64,000 nucleotides of DNA, from the IMG/VR virus record IMGVR_UViG_2925908680_000001. One strand, given 5' to 3'. Within the stretch, counting starts at the first letter, position 1. Every line of letters starts with the position of its first letter. Positions 3,024 to 47,017 of the stretch are shown one piece after another. The DNA comes from a virus. Its lineage: Duplodnaviria > Heunggongvirae > Uroviricota > Caudoviricetes. Both the position numbers and the translations under genes were made by a program. The notes below the pieces were generated by a model. The model worked only from the letters and a program-made list of their open reading frames with translations. It had not been told where the DNA came from and ran no database searches.

Positions 3024-3040
3024 AATTTTCTAATATAATC
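3024..3040 (+). promoter_or_regulatory. Operator-like motif aattttctaatataatc (C1-operator-like family)
   Basis: Member of a recurring TTTCTAAYA motif; lies about 75 bp upstream of ORF 3114. Confidence 0.4.
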
Positions 3041-3113
3041 ATCTTTTTACCAGTCTATACAGTTTTAACATTCTCATTATCATCCCCTCGGTCATTTCCT
3101 GCCCGGGGGATTA

Positions 3114-3506
3114 ATGGAACAAATCAGCAGCGCAGAAATTGCGGATATCATGATCAGGGCTGACTGCTATCTGACAGTCACTGAAATTACCACTCTCGCC
3201 AAAGAAAAATACCCTCATCTCCATGTTTCACGAGTAAGTGTAACTAACATCATTCGTCATTTTGTTCGTTCAAGCAGGGCAATCTGTGAGCTGGATGATC
3301 GTGTGTATCCACGAAAATACTGGCTACATGGTCTGAACGGATATCAGTTCAAGGTGCGCGGGCGCACGCCTGAATACGGTAGCTTACTGGTTAAAAACTG
3401 TAGCAGGAAATCAGTCGAACAGGCGCGAAAAGAGCAACGAGAGCTGGTGGACATGGCGAATAAGCTGTGGAATGCCGCCGTTAAAAAGCGTGGTGTTGCT
3501 TTATGA
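3114..3506 (+). CDS. Hypothetical protein; positional analog of P1 late-promoter activator Lpa (unverified)
   Basis: ORF track; immediately upstream of pacA as lpa is in P1; operator-like motif upstream. Confidence 0.5.
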   Translation: MEQISSAEIADIMIRADCYLTVTEITTLAKEKYPHLHVSRVSVTNIIRHFVRSSRAICELDDRVYPRKYWLHGLNGYQFKVRGRTPEYGSLLVKNCSRKSVEQARKEQRELVDMANKLWNAAVKKRGVAL

Positions 3507-4867
3507 GTCTGGTTAATTGGGAGGAGCACCGCGCCCGCTTTATAGCGTTGCGTGAAGAAAAAGGGATCACTGTAAAGGAATACTGTGAGGAGCATGGCCT
3601 TAGCTTCAATACAGCCAGAAAGCATCTCAATATGAAAAAAAATGAGGTGCGGTCGCAGGTAAAGACAACAAAAAAAAGCACCAAATCACCTGAAAAAAAA
3701 CGGGCGGGAAGAGCAACAAAAAAGCTGGAAGAGGGTGCAGAAAAAACAAAATTTACAGAAATTGACAATTCTCAGGGCGCAGGTTCTTTCCGAAGTATGC
3801 CGAGAAAGAAAACTTCGGATCATGAAAATAATGCAAATAATAACAATGAGATAAAAGAATCTGTCAGGAGATCATTGCGCGAAAAAATGGCGAAAATGAT
3901 CCCCGAAGAAGATAAAAGCGCCCCAAAAATTGAGGGATCTTCTGCAATGATCCCTGACGGTGCTGTGCAGCGTGCCACATTGCCCACTACGAATGTGGCT
4001 CGCGATATGATGAAGAACGGCGCAGAAGAACACCTGCGGTTAGCAATTCAAATGGCGCAAGAGCGCGCACTTCAGTATCAAAGCATTGTTGATCAGGAGG
4101 CCGAACGTCTACAGGCGGAAATAGACGCCTTGGGCGATAAAGAGCCAGAAGGAATGCACCCTGGGCAGCGCCTTCTCGGTCTAATCAGTGACGCGGCCTA
4201 CTACATGAATGATTTTATCAGTAGGTTGGCAGCTATATATCAGTCCGAACAAAAGCTGCGACAGGGGGATGAAAAGCTTCGTCAGAGCGCTCGCCAGCAA
4301 GCATTCAAAGAGGCTGAGGCCAGAGAAAAACTCGAATTAGCACGCCTACAGGCCGAACAGCGTGGCAAAGAGATTGAATATCGCATTGGCGCTGACGCAC
4401 GCGCAGCCAGAGTTATCGCCGCCGCTATACGTATGCGTGAGCGCGAGGAACTGGATGATATCGGTGTTGCTGAATACATCGAGCGCCAGGGGGTCAGCGT
4501 CCCGGCTATCCTCGCGGCGCGCGCGGCGAAAGCTATCACTCTTCTCGAACCACCTGTTTCTGACGTCAATGATGTTGATGATGAACAGCTGGACAAAGAG
4601 GCAAGGGAGTTTGCAACGCTTCAGGCTAACCATCCGCAATGGCTGGCAGAGCGCCGGGCGGATGTGGCAACCATTGTTGAAGAATTGGGGTGCGGAGATT
4701 ACGATCGCAATGGCGAGCGTAAAGCTGGAGAATTCGAGGCCAACGACGAAGAGCTGGATATTGACCCTTCGGCAACGGCTGAAATTTACGGTGATTATGA
4801 TGTATCTGATGCAGGGTATGACGCCGGAGATGATGATATCGCGATAGAACCGCCGGAGGATGATTAA
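3503..4867 (+). CDS. pacA: Terminase small subunit, PacA-like
   Basis: ORF track; overlaps start of the large terminase; basic N-terminus and acidic C-terminal tail; synteny with P1 pacA-pacB. Confidence 0.55.
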   Translation: MSLVNWEEHRARFIALREEKGITVKEYCEEHGLSFNTARKHLNMKKNEVRSQVKTTKKSTKSPEKKRAGRATKKLEEGAEKTKFTEIDNSQGAGSFRSMPRKKTSDHENNANNNNEIKESVRRSLREKMAKMIPEEDKSAPKIEGSSAMIPDGAVQRATLPTTNVARDMMKNGAEEHLRLAIQMAQERALQYQSIVDQEAERLQAEIDALGDKEPEGMHPGQRLLGLISDAAYYMNDFISRLAAIYQSEQKLRQGDEKLRQSARQQAFKEAEAREKLELARLQAEQRGKEIEYRIGADARAARVIAAAIRMREREELDDIGVAEYIERQGVSVPAILAARAAKAITLLEPPVSDVNDVDDEQLDKEAREFATLQANHPQWLAERRADVATIVEELGCGDYDRNGERKAGEFEANDEELDIDPSATAEIYGDYDVSDAGYDAGDDDIAIEPPEDD

Positions 4868-6375
4868 TGGCTGGCGGGCGCAAGATTAAATGCGTCACCA
4901 GCGATCCACGCTGGCGCGATATGGTAATCAAATACCGCTACAACTTTACCCAGGCTGTTGTCGATATTTTTGGGATGTTCCCCTCCCACCAGCAGCAGCA
5001 GATCATTCAGTCAGTGCAGGAAACGGGGAGTAGGACGACCGTCACGTCCGGACACGGAACGGGGAAGTCGTCCCTTACCGCGATGTTGCTGTTGATTTTT
5101 ATGATCCTGTTCCCCGATGCCCGTGTCATCATTGTTGCTAACAAGATAGGCCAGGTAAAAACAGGCGTATTCAAATACGTTAAACAGTATTGGGCGAATG
5201 CAGTTAAGCGTCATGGGTGGTTGCAGACCTATTTTGTCCTCTCTGACACCATGTTTTATGAGCGCTCCCGTAAGGGGATTTGGGAAGTTCTCTGCAAAGG
5301 TTATCGACTCGGCAACGAAGAAGCGCTGGCGGGGGAACACGCGGCACATTTGCTTCTAATTCTGGATGAAGCATCTGGTATATCTGATAAGGCGATCGGC
5401 GTAATGACCGGTGCTCTTACTGAAGAAGATAACCGGATGTTGATGCTATCCCAGCCAACAAGGCCAAGTGGTTATTTCTACGATTCGCACCATTCTCAAG
5501 CAAAAACCCCAGACAACCCGAAAGGGATCTGGACAGCAATTGTTCTTAACTCGGAAGAATCACCGTTCGTCACACCACAATTCATCAAGCAGAAGCTTCT
5601 GGAATATGGTGGGCGCGATTCTATTGAGTATATGGTCAAGGTGCTTGGTCAGTTCCCACGAGAAATTAACGGCTATTTGCTTGGTCGTGATGAATGCGAT
5701 CGCGCTGCTCGCCGCAAGGTGTTGTTGGAGAAAAACTGGGGATGGGTGGCAACGGCTGACGTTGGTAATGGGCGAGATAAGTCGGTCCTCAACATCTGCA
5801 AGGTATCTGGTCACAGGGATAAGCGGCGCGTTGTTAACTTTAAGGTAATGGAGATGCCTGGCACTATGGACCCATTGGCCTTTGCTGACTTTATATATAA
5901 CGAATGTACGCCGGAAAAATACCCGAATATAACAATCGCGGTTGATGCCGATGGTTTTGGTTCTGATACGTGTGCGCAGTTGGTGCGTCGTGGTGCGAAC
6001 CCGGTACGTATTCGGTGGGGAAAACCCATGTTTGCGAACAAAGACAGGGAGCGATTTGTTAATCAGCGTGCCTACGCAAATATTATGGCGCGTGATGCCA
6101 TAAAGTCAGGGCGTATGCGGATAGACAGTGACCCAAAAACGGCAGAGCAAGCGTCAAAAATCCCCTTTTTACTGAATGAGGAAGGGAAAATGGCGATGAT
6201 GCGCAAAGAGCACATGCGGCAAAAGCTAAACATCAAATCGCCTGACCGATGGGATACCTACTGCTTCACTATGCTGGTGGACTATGTGCCTGCTAATGAA
6301 GATATTGGTGCCGAAATGGCAACTTTCCGAGATCAGGTTCTGGCGGATATCGAAATGCCAGATCTGGATATATAA
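4867..6375 (+). CDS. pacB: Terminase large subunit, PacB-like
   Basis: Walker A SGHGTGKSS and Walker B LLLILDEASG in the translation; 502 aa. Confidence 0.85.
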   Translation: MAGGRKIKCVTSDPRWRDMVIKYRYNFTQAVVDIFGMFPSHQQQQIIQSVQETGSRTTVTSGHGTGKSSLTAMLLLIFMILFPDARVIIVANKIGQVKTGVFKYVKQYWANAVKRHGWLQTYFVLSDTMFYERSRKGIWEVLCKGYRLGNEEALAGEHAAHLLLILDEASGISDKAIGVMTGALTEEDNRMLMLSQPTRPSGYFYDSHHSQAKTPDNPKGIWTAIVLNSEESPFVTPQFIKQKLLEYGGRDSIEYMVKVLGQFPREINGYLLGRDECDRAARRKVLLEKNWGWVATADVGNGRDKSVLNICKVSGHRDKRRVVNFKVMEMPGTMDPLAFADFIYNECTPEKYPNITIAVDADGFGSDTCAQLVRRGANPVRIRWGKPMFANKDRERFVNQRAYANIMARDAIKSGRMRIDSDPKTAEQASKIPFLLNEEGKMAMMRKEHMRQKLNIKSPDRWDTYCFTMLVDYVPANEDIGAEMATFRDQVLADIEMPDLDI

Positions 6376-6376
6376 A

Positions 6377-6402: not shown

Positions 6403-7440
6403 TTACCAGAGCTTCGCGGCGTACTGCGTTTGGGGGAATGTGTATCCGTAACGTTCTTCGATTGCTTTGCCGTATTTTTTACGAGCTTCATTCAGTTTAA
6501 TGCCGGTCAGGTCGTCTCCAGAGGCCATCATTACGTCTAACAATTCCAGATCCATTTTATCTAGCCTTGCCATTGCTTCACGTGATGTACGTATCTTACG
6601 CTCAATGATATGGCGAATAGCCGGATCGGCATCCTCCAGCATCTTAGCGGATTTCTGCTTAAGGCTTTCATTGCGAATATCGATGTTCCTTAAGATGTAC
6701 GACTTCGCAACGTAGCTTGGCTGGTGTTTTTCTAGGTCACGAACACGATATAAGTTAAAATCGCCGAGAAGGCTGCAAGGTACCGATTCGACGCCAGAAT
6801 AAATTGTAATGCTCCGGCGTTCACCAACATTATTGACAACGGGGATCGTTGTCTTCGGTAGTCTTGCGAAAACCAATGCGCCATGTGCGCCAACTCTAAA
6901 GCGAGAAAGGGCATTGCTGCCTTCGATGTTTGTTGTCAGCACAACATCTGTATATGCCTCTTTACGCGCCCGGTAGATCTCGCCTTCAGGCTCAGCTTCA
7001 AAGAAGCGCTGTTCTTCTTCAAGAGCACCTACAATTTGAGAAAAAACCCTATTTTTCAGGCTTTTCTTTATGATTTTGTCGTATTTTTTGAGCAATTGTT
7101 CACGTGTAAATGTACGTGTTGTTGTAGCGCTTTGCACAACAACATGCGTGCTTTGATTGGTGTCCTCAATGATGAATGGGATCGGAGAATATACAGACTC
7201 AACAATGTTCGACGCTTTGCCGTCGGCATCGCGGCACATGTCAACGAAGGCTTTCCATTCAGCAAGACATTTTTCAGCTTCTTCTAATATGTTTTGGTCA
7301 TGCGTTAATGCAACATGGCGGAATTCCTCGCCAGCATAACTGGTATCATGGAAAACAGAGTTTGCGACCACCAGCTCTTTCCACCGTTCAGCGGTTTGCA
7401 GGAACCGTTTGTACTCTTTCTCGATCGACTTCTTACTCAT
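6403..7440 (-). CDS. Hypothetical 345-aa protein occupying the position of P1 c1/coi (candidate immunity repressor or accessory defence gene)
   Basis: ORF track; no motif recognised by eye; convergent with pacB, divergent from dre; operator-like motif 17-35 bp upstream of its start. Confidence 0.6.
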   Translation of the reverse strand: MSKKSIEKEYKRFLQTAERWKELVVANSVFHDTSYAGEEFRHVALTHDQNILEEAEKCLAEWKAFVDMCRDADGKASNIVESVYSPIPFIIEDTNQSTHVVVQSATTTRTFTREQLLKKYDKIIKKSLKNRVFSQIVGALEEEQRFFEAEPEGEIYRARKEAYTDVVLTTNIEGSNALSRFRVGAHGALVFARLPKTTIPVVNNVGERRSITIYSGVESVPCSLLGDFNLYRVRDLEKHQPSYVAKSYILRNIDIRNESLKQKSAKMLEDADPAIRHIIERKIRTSREAMARLDKMDLELLDVMMASGDDLTGIKLNEARKKYGKAIEERYGYTFPQTQYAAKLW

Positions 7441-7456: not shown

Positions 7457-7475
7457 AGTTTTCTAACATAAAATT
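7457..7475 (+). promoter_or_regulatory. Operator-like motif agttttctaacataaaatt
   Basis: Recurring TTTCTAACA motif; immediately upstream of reverse-strand ORF 6403-7440. Confidence 0.45.
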
Positions 7476-7650
7476 ACTATGACAAATTTATGTCGAATAA
7501 CAGAGTGAGTAAAGGATCGAACTGTGATTTTTTGTCATCAATTTTAGAAAACCAACTGTATAAACCACACTTCGCAAATTAAAGACCATGAAGGCAACGT
7601 GTTACTGGTCAAAATCAATCTATGATGGATTAAAAAAAATCGCCATTTTG

Positions 7651-7682
7651 TAACTTTAAATAATTGGCATTATTTAAAGTTA
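7651..7682. other. rox site-specific recombination site (Dre target)
   Basis: taactttaaataat-tggc-attatttaaagtta: 14-bp perfect inverted arms around a 4-bp spacer; equals the reverse complement of rox as I recall it; 150 bp upstream of the recombinase gene. Confidence 0.9.
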
Positions 7683-7834
7683 GGCTATAATCATGTGTAG
7701 ATGAACAGTGTTGACATCACTGAAAATACGTGCCTCGAATCAAAGGTTTGTATTTTGAAAATTAACTTATAGCTACCCTGTCATTTTTATATTTTTCGCG
7801 TAGCGACATCTGTATATAGAGGTGAAATAGTTTC

Positions 7835-8863: not shown

Positions 8864-8867
8864 ATTA

Positions 8868-8883
8868 AATTTCTAACACATCT
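8868..8883 (+). promoter_or_regulatory. Operator-like motif aaatttctaacacatc
   Basis: Recurring motif downstream of dre stop, upstream of ORF 8937. Confidence 0.4.
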
Positions 8884-8936: not shown

Positions 8937-9281
8937 TTGCAGAGTCAAATCACGGAATCAAGACGCTTCAAGGTGGATGGTTACACCGTAACCTTCGCCG
9001 CTGGTGTTAAGAACAGTCATGCTGTCGTTGTGTTCGGCATCATGACCGGGCTTGAGGCCGTCCCTGTGTTTACCCTCGAAAAAAACTGGCGAAATCTGGA
9101 GGAAGCAGAAAGCTACGTCCGGAAAGTAACCATCATTGCCGCCGAAAAACTCCTGGCCCACTATCAGGAAAATTATCGCACTATGGTCGAGAAGATTAAT
9201 CTCGCTTTCACTCGCCCCACTACCGGCTTTATCGCACCAGATACTAATGCAGGTCGATATCCTGCAAGGGGGCGTCGGTGA
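8937..9281 (+). CDS. Hypothetical protein (non-ATG start implied by ORF track)
   Basis: ORF track; TTG start. Confidence 0.4.
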   Translation: MQSQITESRRFKVDGYTVTFAAGVKNSHAVVVFGIMTGLEAVPVFTLEKNWRNLEEAESYVRKVTIIAAEKLLAHYQENYRTMVEKINLAFTRPTTGFIAPDTNAGRYPARGRR

Positions 9282-36058: not shown

Positions 36059-36964
36059 ATGAGATCAGTCGCTTTCAAAAATATCTTCATCTATCGTCTT
36101 TCACGCGAAGTTAGCTGGGATACTGCAGCGGTAAACGCTGCTCTTGGCAAATTTGTGTTTACCCCATGCGGTTCTCAGGACATGGTTAAAGCTGGTTGGA
36201 CGCCTGTTCTTGGCAACAACCTCACACATGAATACCAGGGTTTTCTTCTGATACAGCATAAACGAGAGGAAAAAATCCTACCTTCTCAAGTGCTCAAAGA
36301 AGAGTTACAGAAAAAAATCCTGACACTTGAAGAAGAGCAAGACAGAAAGCTGAAGAAGACCGAAAAAGATTCGCTGAAGGATGAAGTGCTTCACTCTCTT
36401 CTTCCTCGTGCTTTCACGAGAAAATCACTCGCCAAAATCCTGATCGACCGCAGCAACCATCTGGTATTCGTTGAGGCAAGCAGCGCCAAAAAGGCAGAGG
36501 ACCAGCTGGCTTTATTGCGAAAATCGCTCGGCAGCCTGCCTGTCATTCCATTCACACCACGCGAACCGCTGGAAATTACAATGACCGAGTGGTTTAAAAA
36601 CGGCTTCCCTGCCGGATTTACAGCAGGTGAAGACGCCACATTAAAGGGTCTGCTCGATAATGGTGGTGCCGTTCGCTGCAACAAAGTTGATCTACAGTCC
36701 GACGAGATTATGTCTCACATTGAGGCGGGGAAAGTAGCTACGACCGTTGCAATTAACTGGATGGAACGCGCGTCGTTCAGAGTCAACGATGATATGAGTA
36801 TCAAAGCCCTGACATTCTGTGATGATCTCTATGACCAGAACGACGATATCGACCGGGAGGATGTAGCACAACGATTTGATGCTGATTTCGTGCTCTTTAC
36901 GGGCGAATTATCTGCACTGTTTAACGCGCTGGTGGAGGCCATTGGCGGTGAAGCAGAACGATAA
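36059..36964 (+). CDS. rdgC: Recombination-associated protein RdgC homolog
   Basis: Strong similarity to E. coli RdgC as recalled (FTPCGSQDM, KLKKTEKDSLKDEVLHSLLPRAF, SAKKAEDQLALLRKSLGSLPV). Confidence 0.85.
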   Translation: MRSVAFKNIFIYRLSREVSWDTAAVNAALGKFVFTPCGSQDMVKAGWTPVLGNNLTHEYQGFLLIQHKREEKILPSQVLKEELQKKILTLEEEQDRKLKKTEKDSLKDEVLHSLLPRAFTRKSLAKILIDRSNHLVFVEASSAKKAEDQLALLRKSLGSLPVIPFTPREPLEITMTEWFKNGFPAGFTAGEDATLKGLLDNGGAVRCNKVDLQSDEIMSHIEAGKVATTVAINWMERASFRVNDDMSIKALTFCDDLYDQNDDIDREDVAQRFDADFVLFTGELSALFNALVEAIGGEAER

Positions 36965-36980
36965 TAACCGACAGCTTGTT

Positions 36981-37628
36981 GTGAGTCTTTGTGATTTTAC
37001 GGGGGCAATGGTTGCCCCCTGGCTGGAATACGGTGTCGATGCCGCTATCGTCGATCCACAGCACTTATCGACCAGTGACGAGCGGATGCAATCAGGTGCC
37101 GTTCTGACGCGTATTAGTGCGATCATCGATAGCGATGAAGTATACGCTTTTCTCCGTAAGAATTTGCAGCGCATCGTGTTTCTGGCCGGGTTCCCACCGT
37201 GTACTGACCTGGCTGTTTCCGGCGCGCGCTGGTTTTCGGACAAGGCTAATAAAGATCCGGTTTTCCAGTTCAAAGCAATGCAGGTTGTCTGGCAGTGTTA
37301 TGACATTGCAAAGATGATCGGTTGTCCGTACATGATTGAAAATCCGGTCAGCAAAATATCGACATTCTGGCGTAAGCCAGATCACATCTTTCACCCTTAC
37401 TTCTTCACTGCATATTGTCAGGAAGATAACTACACCAAAAAAACATGCCTCTGGAGCGGCCAGGGCTTTGTCATGCCTGATGCCCTAATGGACGAATCAT
37501 TAGGCAAGCCAGATAACAGAATCCATGCCGCGCCACCAGGGCCTGACAGGGCTAATTTTCGAAGTGCTACTCCACATGGATTCGCAAAGGCAGTTTTCGA
37601 AGCGAATAAGGGGGTGCTCTATGAGTAA
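36981..37628 (+). CDS. Putative DNA (cytosine-5) methyltransferase-like protein, short form
   Basis: Motif I-like SLCDFTGAMV and motif IV-like GFPPCTD; GTG start assumed; stop overlaps dam start (ATGAGTAA). Confidence 0.45.
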   Translation: MSLCDFTGAMVAPWLEYGVDAAIVDPQHLSTSDERMQSGAVLTRISAIIDSDEVYAFLRKNLQRIVFLAGFPPCTDLAVSGARWFSDKANKDPVFQFKAMQVVWQCYDIAKMIGCPYMIENPVSKISTFWRKPDHIFHPYFFTAYCQEDNYTKKTCLWSGQGFVMPDALMDESLGKPDNRIHAAPPGPDRANFRSATPHGFAKAVFEANKGVLYE

Positions 37629-38526
37629 ATCTATAGCAAGCATAGCCATAGAAAAACAGGATACGATGGCTGAAATTAGCTATATGCGCACCATTCGGAC
37701 TCAGGATGAATATGAGCGTCCGATATTCAAATGGGTAGGTGGTAAATTCTCAGAATTGCCTACAGTGCTTGAGCATCTACCACACGGTAAGCGGTTAATA
37801 GAACCATTCGTTGGTGGCGGTTCCGTATTTACGAATGCAGGATTTCGCCACAACCTGCTTAATGATATTAACGGTGACCTGATTAACTTCTATCAGACAT
37901 TGCAGCGAGAAGGACATTCGCTTGTCACGCTGTCATATAGTTTTTTCCAAAATTACAACAACGCTGACGCTTACCTCGAAGTGCGTGAGGCATTTAACAG
38001 AGGAAAGTATGACCAGCTACATCATGCTGCCGCCTTTTTGTACCTTAATCGGCACTGTTTTAATGGCGTAACGCGGTACAACCAAAATGGCGAGTTCAAC
38101 GTGGGGTATGGCAAATACAAAGCGCCCTACTTCCCACATGCAGAGATGGAGGCATTTTTGGCTGATGACGTACTCAAAAACACGTCCTTTGTATCAGGTG
38201 ACTTTGCTGGCGTCATCGAGGCGGCTGGTGAAGGCGATGTGATTTTTTGCGATCCGCCGTATGAACCGCTGCCGGATACAGAAGGGTTTACCAGTTATTC
38301 AGGAAATAGCTTCCGTTTCGACGAACAGAAACGGCTGGTATCTCTATTGGTGGAAGCCCACCAGCGCGGCGCTAAGGTAGTGATAACAAATAGTGGTGCG
38401 CCAAACATCCGTGAACTATATGAAGGAAACGGGTTTAAAGTACATCATATGGCAGCCAGACGGTCGGTGTCCTGCAAGGCGTCAACACGTGTAGTTGCTA
38501 ACGATATAATTGCAATAATGAAGTAA
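37621..38526 (+). CDS. dam: DNA adenine methyltransferase (Dam family)
   Basis: FKWVGGK, EPFVGGGSVF and DPPY motifs. Confidence 0.85.
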   Translation: MSKSIASIAIEKQDTMAEISYMRTIRTQDEYERPIFKWVGGKFSELPTVLEHLPHGKRLIEPFVGGGSVFTNAGFRHNLLNDINGDLINFYQTLQREGHSLVTLSYSFFQNYNNADAYLEVREAFNRGKYDQLHHAAAFLYLNRHCFNGVTRYNQNGEFNVGYGKYKAPYFPHAEMEAFLADDVLKNTSFVSGDFAGVIEAAGEGDVIFCDPPYEPLPDTEGFTSYSGNSFRFDEQKRLVSLLVEAHQRGAKVVITNSGAPNIRELYEGNGFKVHHMAARRSVSCKASTRVVANDIIAIMK

Positions 38527-38529
38527 AAA

Positions 38530-38558
38530 ACGCCGCAGTAGCGGCGTTTACTTTTTTA
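38530..38558. terminator. Bidirectional intrinsic terminator shared by dam and glnS
   Basis: acgccgc-agta-gcggcgt flanked by an A-run and a T-run. Confidence 0.7.
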
Positions 38559-38574
38559 TGTGGCGAAATACCTA

Positions 38575-40236
38575 TTAACCTAACTTCGCCCAGGTATCAC
38601 GCAGCCCAACGGTGCGGTTAAATACCGGTTTTTCCGCCGTAGAATGGCGGCTGTCGAGGCAGAAATAACCTTCACGCTCAAACTGGAATGCTTTACCCGC
38701 TACCGCTTCTTTCAGCGACGGTTCAGCAAAACCCTGTTTGATCACCAGCGATTCCGGGTTAATCACCGACAGGAAATCATCCGCAGCACCTGGGTTCGGC
38801 ACGCTGAACAGACGATCGTACAGGCGGATTTCAACCGGCAGCGCATGTGCCGCGCTCACCCAGTGAATAACGCCTTTCACTTTACGACCATCTGCCGGAT
38901 CTTTGCTTAAGGTGTCGGCGTCATAAGTACAGAAGATGGTGGTGATATTGCCTTCGGCATCTTTCTCCACGCGTTCAGCCTTAATGACGTAAGCATTACG
39001 CAGACGCACTTCTTTACCCAGCACCAGACGTTTGTACTGCTTGTTAGCTTCTTCTCGGAAATCGGCGCGGTCGATCCAAATCTCACCGCTAAACGGCACC
39101 TGACGGTTACCCATTTCCGGTTTGTTTGGATGGTTCGGCATGGTGACCATTTCGCCTTCGCCCTGATAGTTTTCGATGACCAGTTTCACCGGATCGATAA
39201 CCGCCATTGCGCGCGGCGCATTTTCGTTGAGATCTTCACGGATGCAGGATTCCAGCGACGCCATCTCAATGGTGTTGTCCTGCTTGGTCACGCCGATGCG
39301 TTTGCAGAACTCACGAATAGAAGCCGCAGTGTAACCACGACGACGCAGACCGGAAATGGTCGGCATACGCGGGTCATCCCAGCCTTCAACGTGCTTGTCG
39401 GTCACCAGCAGGTTCAGCTTACGCTTGGACATCACAGTGTATTCCAGATTCAGGCGCGAGAATTCGTACTGGCGCGGGTGAACAGGAATGGTGATGTTGT
39501 CCAGCACCCAGTCGTAAAGGCGACGGTTGTCCTGGAACTCAAGCGTACACAGAGAGTGCGTAATACCTTCCAGCGCATCGCTGATGCAGTGGGTGAAGTC
39601 GTACATCGGGTAGATGCACCACTTGTTGCCAGTCTGGTGGTGTTCAGCAAACTTAATGCGATACAGCACCGGATCGCGCATCACGATAAACGGCGAAGCC
39701 ATGTCGATTTTCGCACGCAGGCAGGCTTTACCTTCTTCAAAACCACCGGCACGCATTTTTTCGAACAGCGCCAGGTTCTCTTCAACGCTGCGATCGCGGT
39801 ACGGGCTGTTTTTACCCGGCTGCGTCAGGGTGCCGCGGTATTCGCGGATCTGTTCCGGCGTCAGTTCGTCAACATACGCCAGGCCTTTGTTGATCAGTTC
39901 AACAGCATAGGCGTGGAGCTGATCAAAATAATCGGAGGAGTAACGGATGTTGCCAGACCAGTGAAAACCTAACCATTCAACGTCGTTTTTAATCGACTCG
40001 ACGTACTCGATATCTTCTTTTACCGGGTTAGTGTCGTCGAAACGCAGGTTGCACTGGCCTTTATAGTCCTGGGCGATCCCGAAGTTCAGGCAGATAGATT
40101 TCGCATGACCAATATGCAGATAGCCATTCGGTTCCGGCGGGAAACGGGTATGTACTGTGGTGTGCTTACCACTGGCCAGATCTTCATCGATGATCTGACG
40201 AATAAAGTTAGTCGGGCGGGCTTCTGCCTCACTCAT
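38575..40236 (-). CDS. glnS: Glutaminyl-tRNA synthetase (GlnRS), near-identical to host E. coli protein
   Basis: 553-aa translation matches E. coli GlnRS over essentially the full length from memory ([25 protein letters not shown]..., HIGH and VMSKR class I motifs); only the extreme C-terminus seems to differ. Confidence 0.95.
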
Positions 40237-40504
40237 TGTGGATTCCTCAAAGCGTAAACAACGTATAACAGCGTATGATCTTATAAGCCGAATAGGCTGA
40301 CAACCACTAGTTGATTAGAAATTGCTTTCTATCGTTATTTCAATAATGAGCTTTTTCATTAAGCCCACTTTTGCGCATAAGTAAATTAATGACAAATGGT
40401 ACACAATTGGAACCAAAAAGGATGTAAAGGTGCACCAAATTAGTGGTGTATTGGTGCACCTTTGGTTCAAGACTTTTTAAGTTCTAAAACCAACCTGAAA
40501 GACT

Positions 40505-40792
40505 TTATTTTGCTTCCTCAGACTCCGCTAACATGAGGATAGCATGGCGGATCATATTCAATTTGCTACGATTATGCTTTTTACTTAACGCATCAAGTAC
40601 CTGGTACTCGTATTCATTGAAACCAACACGAATAGATTTAAAATCACGTGGAGCGTCCTTATCGAGCACTTTGTTGTCTTCTGGTTGCTCACCCGGCACC
40701 AAATCAGCCTTACTTGCAAAATCCTCAATTCGGCGTTCAAGATCGGGGTCTTTTACTTCGGGGGCTTTTACCGATTTACGAGGCTTAATCAC
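40505..40792 (-). CDS. Ribbon-helix-helix partition/centromere-binding protein (ParG-like)
   Basis: 95 aa; C-terminal RHH-like FNEYEYQVLDALSKKHNRSKLNMIRHAILMLAE; coupled downstream of parA. Confidence 0.6.
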   Translation of the reverse strand: MIKPRKSVKAPEVKDPDLERRIEDFASKADLVPGEQPEDNKVLDKDAPRDFKSIRVGFNEYEYQVLDALSKKHNRSKLNMIRHAILMLAESEEAK

Positions 40793-41426
40793 TTAATAAC
40801 TCCTTAACCAACATCTGGATTTCACCTTTAGCTTTCCCGTTGTCCATCTCAACAACGCCCTTCCCTTCAGCCATGCAATCGCGGTAAACCTTACGATCAC
40901 GAATGATGGTTTTCAGCAACTTCAGTTGCGGATATTCAGCCAGGTACTCTTTGGCCTCATTGGTTTCATTCACAACCGGATTGGATGGGGCCATTGTTAA
41001 GACTGCGAACGCCTTAATGCTAGGATTAGGCATCAGGTCCAAAGCCTCTTCAAACACTTCAACAAAGTGTGCCAGCGTGTCTAAATCTGGTTGAGATGGT
41101 CTGAATGGGACCAACACAATATCTGCAGCGGTTATGCCTGTACGCATCTCTTTGCTATCGCGCCCGGCTGTATCAACAACTACAAATTCATAACGCTTAT
41201 CCAGATCGAGAAGTGTTTCTCGAATATTACCAAACTTCTGGACACAATGAATTACAGGAGAAACCTCTGCCGTGTTACGGTCAGCGGCCCAGCGGGCAGC
41301 TGTTCCTTGCTTGTCTGCATCTAGTAACACTACATCCTTATTTTCGCGGGCAAGCTCCGCACAGATGTTTACGCTTGTGGTTGATTTTCCACAGCCACCT
41401 TTTTGGCTGACTACCAATATAATCAT
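40785..41426 (-). CDS. parA: ParA-family partition ATPase (small type Ib)
   Basis: Deviant Walker A VVSQKGGCGKSTT; 213 aa. Confidence 0.8.
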   Translation of the reverse strand: MIILVVSQKGGCGKSTTSVNICAELARENKDVVLLDADKQGTAARWAADRNTAEVSPVIHCVQKFGNIRETLLDLDKRYEFVVVDTAGRDSKEMRTGITAADIVLVPFRPSQPDLDTLAHFVEVFEEALDLMPNPSIKAFAVLTMAPSNPVVNETNEAKEYLAEYPQLKLLKTIIRDRKVYRDCMAEGKGVVEMDNGKAKGEIQMLVKELLSD

Positions 41427-41711
41427 ATCCGTTCCTCGGTGTTATTTTGGTATCAAACTGGTTCCAAACAGAAGCCTTATTGATGCGGTTTTGGCTCTAT
41501 AGTGGAGTCATTATGCTTTGCAAAAGTATAACACTAATCATTCTAAATTTGCCCTCTGTTGCATCCTGTTTAACACGAAATCAGCACTAAATTGGAACCA
41601 GATACAAAGCAGCACCATAACAACACCGTTTTGGTACTAAAAGAGCACCAAACTAGAATCATAACGGTATAAAAAAGGCTGCAAATTGCAGCCTTTGAAG
41701 ATGTAGATTGG

Positions 41712-42083
41712 TTAATCAGGGAGTGAGTTTGCCAAATTCTGAGCAGAGCGGCTTTTCGGAACGCCTGGTTTTTTTACATCCTCTGAGACAGAGGTTTTTC
41801 CTTCAGTAGGTTCCCGAACTTCATGCGAAATTTCAAGAAACGAAACCAGCATTTTTCTGATCACTTCAGAGCTATTATCACCGGATAAAAGCGATGCCAA
41901 CATGGGAGGTAATCTGCTATCAACCTCGCCAAGAGCGATACCTGCAAGCATCGCAGTGCGCACCATATCATTGCGATCACTTAATGGATGGGCCTCAATT
42001 TTTGCCACAGCATATTGCTCACTGGCGTAAGCGTTAAGATCTGAACGAAGATAAAACATTATTTTTCGACGTTCTTTAGACAT
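41712..42083 (-). CDS. parR: ParR/StbB-like centromere-binding protein
   Basis: 123 aa directly downstream of parM; ParR-like N-terminal segment. Confidence 0.65.
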   Translation of the reverse strand: MSKERRKIMFYLRSDLNAYASEQYAVAKIEAHPLSDRNDMVRTAMLAGIALGEVDSRLPPMLASLLSGDNSSEVIRKMLVSFLEISHEVREPTEGKTSVSEDVKKPGVPKSRSAQNLANSLPD

Positions 42084-42093
42084 GGCAACCTCA

Positions 42094-43053
42094 TCAACCG
42101 ATAGATTTTAGACCATATACAAGAGCAAGTTGTGGATCATCAGCAACGAAAAACCTATCGTCACGAATGTTTACCTGCTCACGGATAGCATCAGCAACAA
42201 GCGGCGCGCCGCCACCAATTACCATAACATGTGTGTATCCTTTGAAATCACTGATCACATCCAGTACGCGTGTACGGAGTCGCTCTATGCTTGACGAAAT
42301 GGCTTTCTTAACATCATCAATAGCAGACGGATCGTTAATATTGTCGGTCAGATAATCCTCATCATCTCGATTAATGATTAATTGATCGACGTTATAATTA
42401 GAGGTTTCGGTATTAGCTTTTGCAAGTGCCTGTCTGACCTCTTTAGTTACCAGCGAAACGCCGAGATTAGAATCGCCAAATACGCGAGAAACGGCGGTCA
42501 TTTGCCCGGCAACCATCGACACATCCAGAGTAGTCCCGCCAAGATCAACAATAAGCACAGAATGCGCTGGCACAAGGCTGTCGCACAGACCGATCCCTGC
42601 GGGTATTGACTCCGGGCGCACAGTCACTTTTTTGATAGTAAAAACCTGACCTTTGTTAAGGGTGACTGGTCGCATCAGGCTGGCCTTTTTCCGCTCAATA
42701 TTTTTCATGTTGTATTGTGCGTCGTCGTCATAAAACTCTGCCAGTGGCAACGTGACTACTATTTCCACTTCTTGAGGCTCAATGCCACTTGTAAGCAGGG
42801 CATGATGAACAGCAAGCACATTAAGCGGGCTGTATTGCCATTCAACGTTATTCGTTGGCAGAACATCCGGCGAGATCAAGTCATATGAATATTTTTCGTC
42901 ATCAATGATGTAGTTAAACGTTTTTCCTGCGCCAAATGTGGCGGACCATCCACGTTTAAAACTGTTCGGGCAGATATGGGTTCGAGTTTCCCCGTCTTGT
43001 TCCCACAGCATTTTGATATTGGTAGAACCATCGTCGATAAAAATGCGCATCAT
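42094..43053 (-). CDS. parM: ParM/StbA actin-like segregation ATPase
   Basis: Start at MMRIFIDDGSTNIK; strong similarity to R1 ParM as recalled (SPNSFKR, NVLAVHHALLTSG, DLGGTTLD, THVMVIGGGA); 320 aa. Confidence 0.85.
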   Translation of the reverse strand: MMRIFIDDGSTNIKMLWEQDGETRTHICPNSFKRGWSATFGAGKTFNYIIDDEKYSYDLISPDVLPTNNVEWQYSPLNVLAVHHALLTSGIEPQEVEIVVTLPLAEFYDDDAQYNMKNIERKKASLMRPVTLNKGQVFTIKKVTVRPESIPAGIGLCDSLVPAHSVLIVDLGGTTLDVSMVAGQMTAVSRVFGDSNLGVSLVTKEVRQALAKANTETSNYNVDQLIINRDDEDYLTDNINDPSAIDDVKKAISSSIERLRTRVLDVISDFKGYTHVMVIGGGAPLVADAIREQVNIRDDRFFVADDPQLALVYGLKSIG

Positions 43054-43071
43054 ATTGCTCCACTTCTGAGA

Positions 43072-43205
43072 CACATTTGAGAAAGAATTGAATCTTATAT
43101 GAGAAAACAAAATAAAACCAGAAGTTGAGAGAGCAAAAAGCACCAGATTTGAGACAAACCAGAGACAAACTAGAGACACACTAGAGACAAGTATGAGAAA
43201 CAAGA
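43072..43205. repeat. parC-like centromere: about 8-10 direct repeats with 10-11 bp period
   Basis: tttgagaaag, tatgagaaaac, gttgagagagc, tttgagacaaa, ccagagacaaa, ctagagacaca, ctagagacaag, tatgagaaaca immediately upstream of parM. Confidence 0.6.
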
Positions 43206-43219
43206 AATCTTAAGAGTGA

Positions 43220-43240
43220 AAATCACAAAGTGGAGAAGAT
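43220..43240 (+). promoter_or_regulatory. Late-promoter-like element aaatcacaaagt
   Basis: Recurring motif 30 bp upstream of the PAAR gene. Confidence 0.4.
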
Positions 43241-43261
43241 TTAAGAAAAAGGAGGTGTTAG

Positions 43262-43546
43262 ATGAGTGCAATAGCGACCTGTGACACAGTTTGTTCCGGT
43301 CATGGAGGATTCCCTCCGCGACCTGTAGCAGAAACAGTTTCCTGGTTTACCGTAAATGGAAAGCCAGTTGTTGTAGATGGTGCCATGTTTCCCAGTCACA
43401 CTGACGGTAACAGTGCACATCCAGGGGCAGCTGTATCGACGCGAGTATGGTTTTCGATAGGTGGAAAGGGAGTTGTCTGTGTAGGCGATCCGCTTTCTTG
43501 TGGTTCTGTTATCGCCAACGGCGAGGATATTTTTCAGGTTGCATAA
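43262..43546 (+). CDS. PAAR-domain spike-tip protein
   Basis: 94 aa with PAAR-like pattern CSGHGGFPPRP ... GDPLSCGS. Confidence 0.7.
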   Translation: MSAIATCDTVCSGHGGFPPRPVAETVSWFTVNGKPVVVDGAMFPSHTDGNSAHPGAAVSTRVWFSIGGKGVVCVGDPLSCGSVIANGEDIFQVA

Positions 43547-44352
43547 TGCTTGATTCAATAGGTGAAGTTAAAGCCTTCAAAATTCTGTCAGATGCCGGTA
43601 TCTCTACACCAGAATCTATAACCATAAGCCGGGCAGCTTCTGTAAAAGCCTCATCGCTCGCCAGCGCCATACAGGGAATAGTTCACGCCGATAAAACCTA
43701 TCCTGATTCTGTTTCGGCCTGGACTACTCAATTGCTTGGCTTTTCTGAACAGCTCAATGAGGCCAGCAAAGCGTCTTCATCACTGGCTGATTCTCTTTCC
43801 CCATACACCAAGCCATCAGAGCTGTTACAGATGAAGATTGGCTGGGAATGCTACGCAAAAGGTAACGAGCTGACCCCCATACCTGCTTTCGCCCTTGTTG
43901 AGGGAATGGGGAATGTTTCCATTCCGCAATCTCTAACGGACGCATTGACGGCGCTAAAACTTGATGCTCTGAAAACCGCCATGAACGCCATTAACGCAAA
44001 AATTGAAGCTGCCGGAAGTGCTGGTGGTGGTGAAAGCAATGGTGGACAGGGTGGTGCTGGGGGCGCTCAGGCTCCAGTCATTACTCAGGATGAAATTGAT
44101 GCTTTACGGGAAGCAGTGACAGCCGCCGAAGTTTTACTCTCCGAAATTAACTCAGCAAGTGAGGGTGTCGTAGCCCTTACAGGTCGCATTAAAACGTCAA
44201 CCACTCAGGCAACCAAAGGTTTAGAGAACGCTGTCGCCATCACGTTAACTGGTTCTCTACTGGATGATGCAGTAATGAGTCCGGCAATCAGTTTAATCAT
44301 GCCACAAGGCGTTATCGATGCGCTCCAAAAGAACACCAAAAAGGAACCATAG
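43546..44352 (+). CDS. Hypothetical protein (Ala/Ser/Gly-rich)
   Basis: ORF track frame with ATG at 43546. Confidence 0.45.
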   Translation: MLDSIGEVKAFKILSDAGISTPESITISRAASVKASSLASAIQGIVHADKTYPDSVSAWTTQLLGFSEQLNEASKASSSLADSLSPYTKPSELLQMKIGWECYAKGNELTPIPAFALVEGMGNVSIPQSLTDALTALKLDALKTAMNAINAKIEAAGSAGGGESNGGQGGAGGAQAPVITQDEIDALREAVTAAEVLLSEINSASEGVVALTGRIKTSTTQATKGLENAVAITLTGSLLDDAVMSPAISLIMPQGVIDALQKNTKKEP

Positions 44353-44422
44353 AAACACCACTTAGGCACACAAAAGGATGTAAATTGGTACATGTTTAAC
44401 ACCAAAAATGAACCTGGAGAGG

Positions 44423-44881
44423 ATGGTTTTGAAAAAGATAATTTTGATTGTAAATGCGCTTTTAGCCATTTCTGGAATTTACCGAACAACGACGGCAGTT
44501 ATCGAACACATCAGGTATGTCCGATCGCTTGAAGACTCAAAATCACAACTGGAAAGCACGAACAACACGCTTTCTACCGCATTACAGTTAAGTGAGAACG
44601 CTCGCTCAGCCATGCTGACCGAAAACGAAAGAATTAAAGCACTGGAAAAGGAGTACCAGCGCAAAACAGCAGAACTGAATGCCAACCTAATCAAACAACG
44701 AGAGGAAAGCCAGAATGAAATCACTCGCCTTGAAAATACGTTGCGCCGTGCTGGGATTAACGATGTGCGTGTACCTGATGACGTTATCAGGATGCAGCGG
44801 GAACGGGCAAAAGCCATCAACCAGCGTGCCAGTGAAAATTACCGTAGAAGCCACCAGCAAGCCGCAGGCAAATCTGATTGA
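44423..44881 (+). CDS. Rz-like i-spanin
   Basis: N-terminal TM segment (KKIILIVNALLAISGIY) then coiled coil; RBS ggagagg; embedded lipoprotein ORF in +1 frame. Confidence 0.5.
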   Translation: MVLKKIILIVNALLAISGIYRTTTAVIEHIRYVRSLEDSKSQLESTNNTLSTALQLSENARSAMLTENERIKALEKEYQRKTAELNANLIKQREESQNEITRLENTLRRAGINDVRVPDDVIRMQRERAKAINQRASENYRRSHQQAAGKSD

Positions 44882-45041
44882 TTACTCCCCTTGTTTAGTG
44901 CCAGAGGACACGCCAGTGCTGTTAAACAAGTATCCGACATACGCTGAACAGTTATTCAGCACGATCGACGAATGCAACCAACGAAACGCACTGAATAACC
45001 AAAGAAACAGGGAGATTTGGGAAGGGGACAGGCGGCAGTGA
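44715..45041 (+). CDS. Rz1-like o-spanin lipoprotein (overlapped architecture)
   Basis: Signal peptide with lipobox LSGC; starts inside Rz in another frame and extends beyond it; RBS gaggaaag. Confidence 0.5.
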   Translation: MKSLALKIRCAVLGLTMCVYLMTLSGCSGNGQKPSTSVPVKITVEATSKPQANLIDYSPCLVPEDTPVLLNKYPTYAEQLFSTIDECNQRNALNNQRNREIWEGDRRQ

Positions 45042-45068
45042 GCTTCACAAAAGCTACATAATTATTTT

Positions 45069-45081
45069 GCGTTAGAAAAAT
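45069..45081 (-). promoter_or_regulatory. Operator-like motif (atttttctaacgc on the reverse strand)
   Basis: Recurring TTTCTAACA-like motif downstream of the spanins. Confidence 0.3.
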
Positions 45082-45289
45082 AATTTGAATTTTCGAACAT
45101 AAATAATAAAATAAATCATCAAAAATTTGATGTTGATCTTCCATGTTTTCAGGCTTATATTCACGCCGTCGTAGCAAATTCTGCGACCGGGTTTAGCAGC
45201 CTGAATGATTGTGCGGACAACCGCAGATTTCCGATATTGCGGTATTTTTGTGTCCGTAAACCGCGTTACGCCCGAATTATGGTGGGGCG

Positions 45290-45400
45290 TGATGGGGAGG
45301 CTTCGGCCTGCTGGTTTCACAATCGCCAGTCTGCTAACCCCGTCACGTCCTGCCACCCGTTTAGCAGCGGGTAGCAGGTTGTTAAACCTGATTGTGAGGC
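45290..45400 (+). ncRNA. Putative c4-like antisense RNA / target region of immunity module 2
   Basis: tcacaatc (45317-45324) complementary to gattgtga (45390-45397) at the icd RBS; ctgctaacc (45331-45339) complementary to gtttagcag (45359-45367). Confidence 0.35.
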
Positions 45401-45407
45401 CGTAACT

Positions 45408-45623
45408 ATGGTTAATGCCAATCCTTGCCCTCGCCCGGAATTTATCTGGCGCTTTTATTCCTGCACAAAACACACCTACATCAGCGTAATGGCAGCTACT
45501 GAGGCTGAAGCGCGTTCATTTCTTCCTACAGATCCGTGCATTTTTGCCGCTCGCTTTAAACCCGATGCTCTGGACGTTTTGACCTACTGGAACCGCCCAA
45601 TGAACTGCGTGGAGGTGCACTGA
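45408..45623 (+). CDS. icd: Icd-like host cell division inhibitor (second copy)
   Basis: 71 aa, about 75 percent identical by eye to ORF 26655-26870; coupled to ant. Confidence 0.65.
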   Translation: MVNANPCPRPEFIWRFYSCTKHTYISVMAATEAEARSFLPTDPCIFAARFKPDALDVLTYWNRPMNCVEVH

Positions 45624-46549
45624 TGAATCTGTCCATCTCTCAAAAAGTGACAATGACAAGTATTGAGATCGCGGAGCTGGTGGGAAGTCGTCATGACAAG
45701 GTGAAACAATCTATTGAACGACTGGCGGGACGAGGTGTAATAGCTTTTCCCCCAATGGGGGAGAAGCCCACCGCAGGCCGCCCGGCGAGCTATTACGTCT
45801 TTGAAGGCGAGCAAGGCAAGCGCGACAGCATTGTTGTCGTCGCACAGCTTTCTCCCGAATTTACCGCCCGACTGGTGGACCGCTGGCGCGAACTGGAGAG
45901 TGCCAAAGTACAGTTAAAATCAAAGGCCGAAATCCTGGCCGAAATGGCGCAAATGCATCTTGAGCATGAACGCCGGATCAACGCCGTAAATGCCCAGGTA
46001 GCCGAGGTATCAGCACAAGTGTCCAGGGTCACTGAAACACTTGAGCAGATCAAGAAAGGCAATATTCCGGAAGGCTACATTGGCTACCGCCAGCTGGCGG
46101 CGAAATGTGGCCTGACTGAAGCCAAATGTCGCAACCTGGTTAACGCTTTCCGGATTCCCACCGATACGCATGAGTTTTTAACTCCAGATGGTTTGCTTGC
46201 GCGACGCTCCATTGTGGCCCTGGCCCCCTTCCGGAAAGCCTTTAAGCAGGTGATGTCGGAGGCAGAACCACGCAATAAACGCTGGTATCATCCAAAGATG
46301 GGGATGTTTCAGGCAATCCACCATCCTGTGCCTGAAAGCCCAAAGGATAATCTGTCACTACATACCGTCAGAGAGAAGATCAGGACTGGATACGCAACAG
46401 TGTGTCGTCGTTCTTCCTGGCCTGAAGGTATATGGGTGTGGCCCGAAGGTGGATCACGAAAGCACTGGCGCACTATCCGAGATGGGAAAATCCATGCTAT
46501 TGATTTAGCTCCAGAGGATATTGTTGCTACGGACTGGATTGTTAGTTAA
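45623..46549 (+). CDS. ant: Antirepressor (Ant-like), second copy
   Basis: 308 aa; C-terminal two-thirds near-identical to ORF 26870-27811, N-terminal Rha-type region diverged. Confidence 0.7.
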   Translation: MNLSISQKVTMTSIEIAELVGSRHDKVKQSIERLAGRGVIAFPPMGEKPTAGRPASYYVFEGEQGKRDSIVVVAQLSPEFTARLVDRWRELESAKVQLKSKAEILAEMAQMHLEHERRINAVNAQVAEVSAQVSRVTETLEQIKKGNIPEGYIGYRQLAAKCGLTEAKCRNLVNAFRIPTDTHEFLTPDGLLARRSIVALAPFRKAFKQVMSEAEPRNKRWYHPKMGMFQAIHHPVPESPKDNLSLHTVREKIRTGYATVCRRSSWPEGIWVWPEGGSRKHWRTIRDGKIHAIDLAPEDIVATDWIVS

Positions 46550-46557
46550 TTACTGTT

Positions 46558-46580
46558 GCCCCGGCCAGGCCGGGGCTTTC
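46558..46580. terminator. GC-rich hairpin between convergent ant and ORF 46585-46989
   Basis: gccccggcc / ggccggggc followed by tttc. Confidence 0.5.
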
Positions 46581-46584
46581 GTGA

Positions 46585-46989
46585 CTAAAAATCTGTTCGC
46601 TGTCGCCATGCGTTTTTTAACTCAGGAATATCCGCCATTTCAATTAACTTGCGAAGTCCAGCACTGACTTTCCCATTGCCAACCATAGCAAGCCAATCTC
46701 TTACTGCTTTCGGCATGTAGAGCGTTGCAGTTACCGGCTCTTCAACCCTGGCAGGACATCCGCATACAGGCCATTTAATTGATTCCATAACTTCGGATGC
46801 CGGGGTGAGGGCGGGGACATTGAGTATATCTCTACCAGAAAACTGGATAACGATCCGTTCAGCGAGCGAGAGTATCTCACTTTCGGCAAGAATTGATGCC
46901 AACTGCGCCTCAACAAGAAAGCGACTTGTTGTGTTCAGAGAGTGGCTCTTAGCGCCATTTTTATACGAAACAAAGATTCGATACGCCAT
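46585..46989 (-). CDS. Hypothetical protein
   Basis: ORF track; operator-like motif directly upstream. Confidence 0.45.
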   Translation of the reverse strand: MAYRIFVSYKNGAKSHSLNTTSRFLVEAQLASILAESEILSLAERIVIQFSGRDILNVPALTPASEVMESIKWPVCGCPARVEEPVTATLYMPKAVRDWLAMVGNGKVSAGLRKLIEMADIPELKNAWRQRTDF

Positions 46990-47017
46990 AACTCTAATGA
47001 TTTGTGTTAGAAAACTA
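46990..47017 (-). promoter_or_regulatory. Operator-like motif (agttttctaacacaaatcatt on the reverse strand)
   Basis: Recurring motif immediately upstream of ORF 46585-46989. Confidence 0.45.

Follow-up and report, generated by a model that had tools for sequence, protein, structure and literature searches.

A dispersed operator-like motif and its candidate C1-family repressor in a phage D6-like plasmid prophage

Introduction

Phage-plasmids of the D6 type are common in Escherichia coli and Salmonella, and their lysis-lysogeny control has so far been inferred only by analogy with phage P1. Here we describe a 64,000-nucleotide stretch of viral DNA (IMG/VR record IMGVR_UViG_2925908680_000001; the whole stretch is hereafter called the window), which by its sequence is a phage D6-like plasmid prophage and a distant relative of P1. 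An asymmetric motif recurs in the window at 12 strong sites, all of them intergenic, and most likely it represents the operator set of the element's own C1-family repressor, predicted from the gene at 6403-7440 on the minus strand. A C1-type regulon is the kind of system to be expected in such an element; what is most likely new is the recognition sequence and the specificity class. A first-pass annotation, made from the letters alone, had proposed a dispersed motif at nine or more intergenic sites, read by a global repressor of altered specificity. The number of sites was borne out, and the regulon is supported by every computational test run: the element encodes a C1 homologue, the loci parallel those of P1, the position weight matrices (PWMs) of the two phages do not cross-match, the motif tracks the C1 lineage and the arms of the sites are conserved. 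Three amendments are needed, namely that many sites form head-to-head pairs, that the annotation's 'orphan gene' is most likely c1 and that counterparts of Coi and Lxc are absent.

Results

A recurrent motif confined to intergenic DNA

At up to two mismatches, RTTTTCTAACAYAAA matches the window 10 times (3025+, 7458+, 21609-, 25183-, 29232-, 36012-, 36035+, 45066-, 45089+ and 47001-) against 0.62 expected; the maximum in 100 shuffled sequences was 3, and none of them reached 10. The motif is therefore more frequent than expected, one of the two points on which the first-pass annotation had let its proposal stand or fall. The short core TCTAAYAYAAA taken alone (one mismatch) showed a marginal excess, with 9 matches against 4.05 expected. 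A 19-mer PWM contributed two more strong sites, at 8865-8883+ (just past the dre stop) and 25840-25858+ (over the ref stop), as well as a weak site at 7537-7555-. Every one of the 12 strong sites falls between genes: the two that were flagged as coding lie beneath a spurious antisense open reading frame (ORF) in the c4 leader, and the intergenic bias has P ~1e-6 even with both counted against it. The unit site is an asymmetric sequence of 15-19 bp, (TTA)RTTTTCTAACAYAAA, the orientation of which mostly follows the adjacent gene. Counting of 12-mers without a prior (one mismatch) also returned the motif, as the top class other than Chi in both the window and D6, and the same procedure recovered the known C1 operator when it was run on P1 as a positive control.

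The sites, given as 15-mers with their strands, are as follows.

3025-3039, plus: site upstream of lpa (late promoter activator; 3114-3506; PF25716); counterpart of P1 Olpa
3002-3016, minus: weak inverted partner of the lpa site (p=0.003)
7458-7472, plus: site between c1 and dre, 18 bp ahead of the c1 start codon; counterpart of P1 Oc1a-e
7538-7552, minus: weak second site in the c1-dre intergenic region (PWM score 9.2); its TTTAGAAAA core is conserved in 4 genomes
8868-8882, plus: site right after the stop of dre (cre-like), upstream of ORF 8937-9281 (PWM score 15.8)
21609-21623, minus (strong arm), and 21632-21646, plus (weak arm, p=0.0003): inverted pair between ppp and a pdcB-like DUF968 gene (20575-21570, minus)
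25183-25197, minus (strong arm), and 25206-25220, plus (weak arm, p=0.002): inverted pair in the divergent intergenic region between ref (25265-25843, plus) and the leftward early operon; counterpart of P1 Oref
25843-25857, plus: site over the ref stop codon (PWM score 18.6), in the same position relative to ref as P1 Omat/Op2b
29232-29246, minus: single site between a phrog_12786 gene (28592-29215, minus) and mat (29442-30137, plus); P1 Omat lies upstream of mat
36012-36026, minus, and 36035-36049, plus: strong inverted pair with an 8-bp gap, in the 60-bp gap before rdgC/hrdC (36059-36964, plus); counterpart of P1 Odmt, which lies upstream of uhr-hrdC-dmt
45066-45080, minus, and 45089-45103, plus: strong inverted pair upstream of immI module B; counterpart of P1 Oc4
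47001-47015, minus: single site 12 bp upstream of ORF 46585-46989 (phrog_7830), in an intergenic region shared with the major capsid gene

The sites that had been placed upstream of lpa, after dre, at the early operon and ref, and before ORF 46585-46989 were thus recovered (at 3025, 8865, 25183 and 47001), whereas the c4 pair (45066/45089) and the sites at 21609, 29232 and 25840 had been missed or left unlisted. A further site had been assigned to an 'orphan gene'; the site exists at 7458, and because it lies 18 bp from the c1 start, that gene is most likely c1 itself. The description of the motif as asymmetric holds for the unit site, but not all sites are solitary, as 5 of the 10 loci carry inverted pairs.

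Two other readings were considered. A fork-trap-like polarity of site orientation around the replicon was set aside, as orientation mostly follows the adjacent gene, and the P1-type Lpa late-promoter box (AAGTGACT, a -22 box followed by a -10 hexamer) is a different motif in the annotated P1 late promoters, with two matches in the window, neither of them at a motif site. No operator features are annotated in the D6 GenBank records (MF356679 and AY753669). Full-text literature searches with the motif string and with D6 plus operator returned nothing relevant, although the text of the primary D6 papers lies outside their coverage and a prior description is possible.

The candidate repressor

The candidate reader of the motif is the 345-aa product of c1, a C1-family prophage repressor that is 100% identical to the C1 protein of D6. 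It aligns with P1 C1 at 21% identity over 240 aa (BLASTP, E=2e-8), carries a C-terminal extension of ~60 aa relative to it, and falls into phrog_1678, the PHROG common to P1 C1; in addition, Pfam PF27008 (Phage_P7_repressor_C1) is found on a 99%-identical cluster representative. However, its score of 25 bits is far below the NCBIfam equivalog cut-off for P1 C1, which is 500. The 7458 site next to the gene is invariant across alleles encoding C1 proteins 100, 80 and 70% identical to that of the window, and it is kept beside c1 even in the phage remnant on plasmid pK91. Autoregulation of c1 through this site is likely.

The same genes as in P1, with a different recognition sequence

To compare the motif with that of P1, we took the 20 annotated C1 operator half-sites from the P1 record (NC_005856) and built a P1 PWM from them. 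Their consensus, ATTGCTCTAATAAATTT, is the one given in the first-pass annotation and also the one quoted in the literature (PMC8546580); among the motif classes, that of P1 reads ATTGCTCTAAT. The resemblance that had been seen between TCTAAYAYAAA and the P1 operator is real for the TCTAA core but goes little further: aligned on TCTAA, the motifs have ~9-10 of 17 positions in common, and the window operators do not fit the 17-bp P1 consensus, the common part being the core and scattered A/T positions. The genome-wide PWM search that had been proposed as a check, with a comparison to the P1 sites, yielded the extra sites listed above and no cross-match. With the P1 PWM, neither the window nor D6 showed a real site (top score ~13 bits, compared with 18-25 for P1's own sites), and the window PWM found none in P1.

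In contrast to the sequence, the distribution of the sites parallels the P1 C1 regulon, as had been claimed. By tblastn and Pfam, the neighbours at six of the eight motif loci (lpa, c1/cre, ref, mat, hrdC-dmt and c4) are orthologues of P1 genes for which a C1 operator is annotated, and the sites can be paired as 3025 with Olpa, 7458/7537 with Oc1a-e, 25183 with Oref, 25840 and 29232 with Omat, 36012/36035 with Odmt, and 45066/45089 with Oc4. Additional sites of D6 lie outside the window, at pmgS/pmgR and in the gap that separates repL from its c4-icd module; P1 has OpmgR and OrepL there. The likeness to P1 and P7 thus comprises a homologous repressor family, some dozen or more dispersed intergenic sites with an asymmetric unit and a TCTAA core, a mixture of single and paired sites, an immI arm of antisense RNA and antirepressor, and the same target genes, lpa, c1/cre, ref, mat, hrdC-dmt and c4-icd-ant, to which repL and pmgR/S are added in D6. 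Further differences from P1 are the lack of a Coi, Lxc or ImcA/B counterpart and the presence of two immI modules.

Paired sites in a fixed register

An inverted partner occurs in an identical register, with the 19-mer starts 21 bp apart, at 5 of the 10 loci: two pairs are strong (36012/36035 and 45066/45089), and three strong sites have weaker partners (3002-3016, 21632-21646 and 25206-25220). The sites are arranged head-to-head, such that their 5' ATTTT ends face each other across 8 bp and their TCTAAC cores are 22 bp apart. In P1, by contrast, the pairs (Oban a/b and Oc1 a/b) are tail-to-tail, with a 6-bp overlap and cores 11 bp apart. The same register as in the window recurs in relatives, with four pairs in NZ_CP104667 and further pairs at the c1 loci L016 and L018. 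A perfect 14-bp inverted pair had been reported before rdgC; its arms proved to be 18 nt long and 94% complementary (17/18), with a perfect stretch of 14 nt and 8 nt between the arms.

Motif classes follow the C1 lineage

C1 alleles in plasmids, collected with tblastn, are 100, ~90, 80, 70, 68, 62, ~30, 29, 28 and 24% identical to that of the window, and the protein database added alleles of 60, 51, 48 and 44%. Throughout the D6 class (C1 44-100% identical) the motif reads TTTTCTAACA, kept in the form TTTTCTAAC(A). Phage D6 itself, which matches most of the window at 96% identity, carries this motif in the same positions (15 PWM hits). The relatives compared were as follows.

E. coli NZ_CP104667, whole, C1 80% identical: 21 TTTTCTAACA sites
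Shigella NZ_CP026818, whole, C1 70% identical: 15 PWM hits (score >= 14)
L016, L018 and L017, c1 loci, C1 51, 48 and 44% identical: same core upstream of lpa, between c1 and cre, and after cre
Leclercia pE1_003, C1 30% identical: motif (A/G)ATTCTAAGGCTTTT
Pantoea pPSP-26e (CP009882), C1 28% identical: motif CAATTCTAAAW

The Leclercia motif ATTCTAAGGCTTTT has 9 matches at up to two mismatches against 0.63 expected; three copies fall in the c1-cre gap, and others follow cre directly or precede rdgC and ref. The Pantoea motif follows cre, precedes rdgC, lies between pmgS- and pmgR-like genes and in the capsid/orf52 gap, and has further copies elsewhere. Equivalence of position extends to single loci: class-matched sites after cre occur at the Leclercia, Pantoea and L016 loci, those at the capsid/orf52 position occur in D6, NZ_CP026818, NZ_CP104667 and Pantoea, and the ref-stop site is found in D6, NZ_CP104667 and NZ_CP026818. 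All four classes (P1, D6, Leclercia and Pantoea) combine a common TCTAA core and equivalent positions with a lack of cross-matching.

Because the Leclercia and Pantoea searches had been seeded with TCTAA, discovery was repeated without a prior on positionally equivalent intergenic regions. This returned ATTTTCTAAC in the window (6/6 regions) and ATTGCTCTAA in P1 (5/5, the positive control), as well as TAATTCTAAGG in Leclercia (4/5 regions) and CAATTCTAAA in Pantoea (5-6/6). A cross-scan of the four PWMs over nine genomes or loci was cleanly diagonal; the P1 PWM found 19 sites in P1 and at most 2 elsewhere, and the D6-class PWM found 13-19 sites in genomes of its own class, compared with 0-1 in P1, Leclercia and Pantoea.

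Footprints of the rdgC, ref/early-operon, c1 and lpa regions, aligned among the window, D6 and the plasmids with the 80 and 70% alleles, point in the same direction. No change was seen in the arms, the weak left ones and the weak 7537 site included, while the spacers between arms and the flanks diverge. At rdgC the arms are constant and the spacer variable in all 4 genomes, at ref and the early operon both arms are conserved between diverged flanks, and the arms of the lpa site are likewise conserved in relatives. Co-variation of the 3' flank with the allele inside the D6 class (YAAA in the window, CATT with the 70% allele) was rejected, as the 80% and 44-51% alleles are mixed.

The plasmid pK91 of S. 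Typhi (NZ_CP029871, 68% allele) was unsuitable for regulon analysis. It is a conjugative multiresistance plasmid on which a D6-like remnant (59977-66979) retains genes for a theta subunit, a umuD-like protein, phd/doc, dut, dre and c1 with the adjacent operator-like site, and the rest of the phage is missing. The orphan C1 on pK91 could confer immunity to D6-class phage-plasmids. In Pantoea pPSP-26e, a palindrome that does not occur in the window, ATGTTTGTAAACAT, is present with its one-mismatch variants in ~33 copies, far more than the operator-like motif.

Promoters and the immunity circuit

Promoter-like sequences overlap the motif or lie close to it at three loci. A promoter-like -10 (GATAAT) lies within the left arm of the rdgC pair. 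At c4, a promoter-like TTGAAT-16-TAAAAT (45085-45112) holds the right arm of the pair in its spacer and is followed by a second promoter, an arrangement that resembles P2c4/P1c4 of P1. A weak promoter-like site (3056-3083) lies just downstream of the lpa site. The other sites have sub-threshold promoter hexamers only, or stand next to start codons. The strongest promoter-like site of the c1-dre region, TTGGCA-16-TATAAT (11/12), faces dre and is overlapped by the rox site TAACTTTAAATAATTGGCATTATTTAAAGTTA (7651-7691); because of this overlap, Dre bound at rox could autoregulate dre.

Rfam identified two C4 antisense RNAs and one c4-a1b1 leader, which belong to two immI modules.

26513-26600, plus: C4 antisense RNA of module A (RF01695, 76.7 bits)
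26655-26870: icd of module A
26870-27811: Ant-type antirepressor gene of module A (phrog_63, anti-repressor Ant)
45155-45207: c4-a1b1 leader of module B
45275-45360: C4 antisense RNA of module B
45408-45623: icd of module B
45623-46549: ant of module B (phrog_63, Ant-type)

Module A is likely to be the antagonist arm of the switch. Rfam also called an isrK Hfq-binding RNA (62.5 bits) at 26390-26468, just upstream of its C4 RNA; as this position matches that of the c4-a1b1 target leader in module B, the call is probably the equivalent leader and not an independent small RNA. Module B is an extra P1/P7-like c4-icd-ant module at 45.1-46.5 kb. Its c4-icd part is ~90-94% identical to P1/P7, and in D6 the place of the module is taken by small ORFs unrelated to it (orf53/54). 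The antirepressor modules of the element are therefore of different origin and number at least two, perhaps three.

No match to P1 Coi, Lxc, ImcA or ImcB was found in the window or D6 at E<0.01 (tblastn), and P1 Ant1, KilA, Ssb and Ban likewise have no detectable counterpart in either. Lxc was also undetected in a D6-like plasmid (PMC6799933). In P1, the Coi/Lxc layer sets the probability of lysogeny (PMC8546580); the D6-type switch seems to rely on C1 and antisense-controlled antirepressors without it.

A Tus-like predicted fold of C1

C1 has no sequence relatives in the PDB, and Tus was not retrieved when PDB sequences were searched with a profile of the C1 alignment. The AlphaFold2 model of the window C1, built from a 23-sequence alignment, is confident (mean predicted local distance difference test score, pLDDT, 86.6), and its Foldseek search against the PDB gave four significant matches, all of them Tus-Ter DNA complexes of E. 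coli (E = 4e-8 to 2.6e-6, probability 1.00, ~275 aligned columns). The model of a P1-type protein (P0011, 98% identical to P1 C1; pLDDT 80.3) again matched only Tus, with E ~3e-9 and a template-modelling (TM) score of 0.45-0.51 over nearly the full length of both proteins. Both C1 types are thus predicted to have a Tus-like fold, with TM-scores that are moderate (0.31-0.51 overall). A literature search found no paper linking C1 and Tus in the searchable corpus.

Tus binds as a monomer to an asymmetric site of ~20 bp, and P1 C1 has been characterized biochemically as a monomer on asymmetric operators. The likeness to Tus-Ter therefore consists of the predicted fold of the D6-type and P1-type proteins and of a monomer/asymmetric-site mode long inferred for P1 C1; the differences are that there is no similarity at the sequence level and that the predicted function of C1 is transcriptional repression. 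A Tus-like fold, as modelled, fits monomer binding to asymmetric sites.

Other features of the element

In megablast, the 30000-50000 region matches Escherichia phage D6 (96% identity, 93% query coverage, reverse orientation), and 93 plasmid records cover more than 80% of this 20-kb query. The gene content roughly tracks that of D6, with the tRNA cluster, lpa-pacAB-c1-rox-dre, the early region, ref, an immI module, mat and tail genes, and further with rdgC and methylases, glnS, partition genes, and capsid and tail genes. A cluster of four tRNA genes lies at the left end (97-342 and 1508-1580), and a glutaminyl-tRNA synthetase gene at 38575-40236 (minus strand); both are known features of D6. 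The Chi sequence GCTGGTGG is present in 39 copies (for example at 1423, 2876, 3443 and 57355) against 1.73 expected, and Chi likewise outnumbers every other 12-mer class in the D6-like, Leclercia and P1 genomes. P1 is known as a Chi-rich phage.

Discussion

We infer that C1 is the protein that binds the motif and that its binding represses. In the plasmid-prophage state, C1 would occupy about a dozen dispersed intergenic sites, probably with one monomer per site, a mode suggested by the biochemistry of P1 C1 and by the Tus-like model. At half of the loci, where two sites stand head-to-head, two monomers would share one face of the DNA, because the cores are 22 bp, or two helical turns, apart. 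Such occupancy would shut off lytic-cycle and accessory genes: lpa, and hence every late gene; the ref-side early operon, ref and mat; rdgC/hrdC with the downstream methylases; the pdcB-like gene; and the c4-icd-ant immunity module. C1 would in addition control its own gene and might affect dre. Release may come from the Ant-type antirepressors of the two immI modules, which would be held in check by C4 antisense RNA.

Several observations weigh against this assignment or narrow it. The Leclercia and Pantoea consensus sequences and PWMs were counted in the very genomes that had supplied them. Other genes of the immC neighbourhood co-vary with the C1 lineage too; therefore, co-variation alone does not single out C1. 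A simple consensus promoter scan showed no overall enrichment of promoters at the sites, and overlap is clear at only two or three loci. Four sites (29232, 36035, 47001 and 7458) are only 10-18 bp from a start codon and would therefore act downstream of the transcription start, which implies a roadblock or an action close to the ribosome-binding site and not classical promoter occlusion. Finally, immI module A has no site near its c4 leader, the nearest lying ~530 bp upstream.

Some of these points bear on the strongest of the alternatives, which we nevertheless regard as unlikely, that the motif is read by a different factor of phage or host that co-varies with immC, or that it is a shared element of early promoters and not a repressor site. 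Any tightly linked regulator would be expected to co-vary with the C1 lineage, and the sites, which are AT-rich, share their intergenic regions with promoters. However, the distribution of the sites mirrors the experimentally defined C1 regulon of P1, the pK91 remnant retains c1 together with the adjacent site, and by eye the motif has no likeness to the IHF or DnaA consensus. As a promoter element it would also be a poor one: its reverse complement, TGTTAGAAAA, makes a weak -10 without the final T and mostly points away from the adjacent gene, the Lpa late box is distinct, and the motif precedes lpa itself.

A second alternative, for which we see a very small chance, is that the inverted pairs act as RNA, as terminators, processing sites or hairpins that sequester the ribosome-binding site and insulate early genes from read-through. 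The rdgC pair offers the best case. As RNA (36003-36058), it would fold into a hairpin of -21.3 kcal/mol (z = -6.2), the 3' arm of which reaches the rdgC Shine-Dalgarno region, and it occupies the 60-bp gap behind a tail gene on the same strand; if transcribed, this hairpin could shield rdgC from read-through of the upstream tail genes. Such a role does not extend to the set as a whole, since half of the loci are single or weak-partnered and would allow no stable stem, the stems lack a following T-run, what is conserved in the arms is the sequence itself (with an invariant TCTAAC core) and not pairing by compensatory changes, and the asymmetric sequence is found in both orientations relative to genes. 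That the recurrence is a chance by-product of AT-rich intergenic composition, to which only the marginal excess of the short core lends colour, is next to impossible given the count of the full motif against expectation and shuffles, the fixed register of the pairs, the conservation in diverged relatives and the replacement of the motif from lineage to lineage.

If the motif is the C1 operator set, the predicted structure permits a further proposal, which we put forward tentatively and consider to have somewhat less than an even chance. The operators may be read by a Tus-fold monomer, with C1 and Tus being the same kind of asymmetric-site DNA clamp, possibly of shared ancestry, and the operators being mechanistic cousins of Ter. 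Operator classes would then evolve by altering the flanks while the core stays constant. Once bound, C1 might serve as a roadblock whose effect depends on orientation; this would suit the sites beside start codons, which are located downstream of promoters.

In summary, the putative operator set described here provides a testable map of the regulon and predicts homo- and hetero-immunity among phage-plasmids. It also brings out how the circuit differs from that of P1, with Coi and Lxc missing and immI duplicated. In addition, C1 represents a repressor family without a solved structure, and the TCTAA core shared by four operator classes, together with the confident Tus-like model, offers a route to asking how C1 may read an asymmetric site as a monomer.

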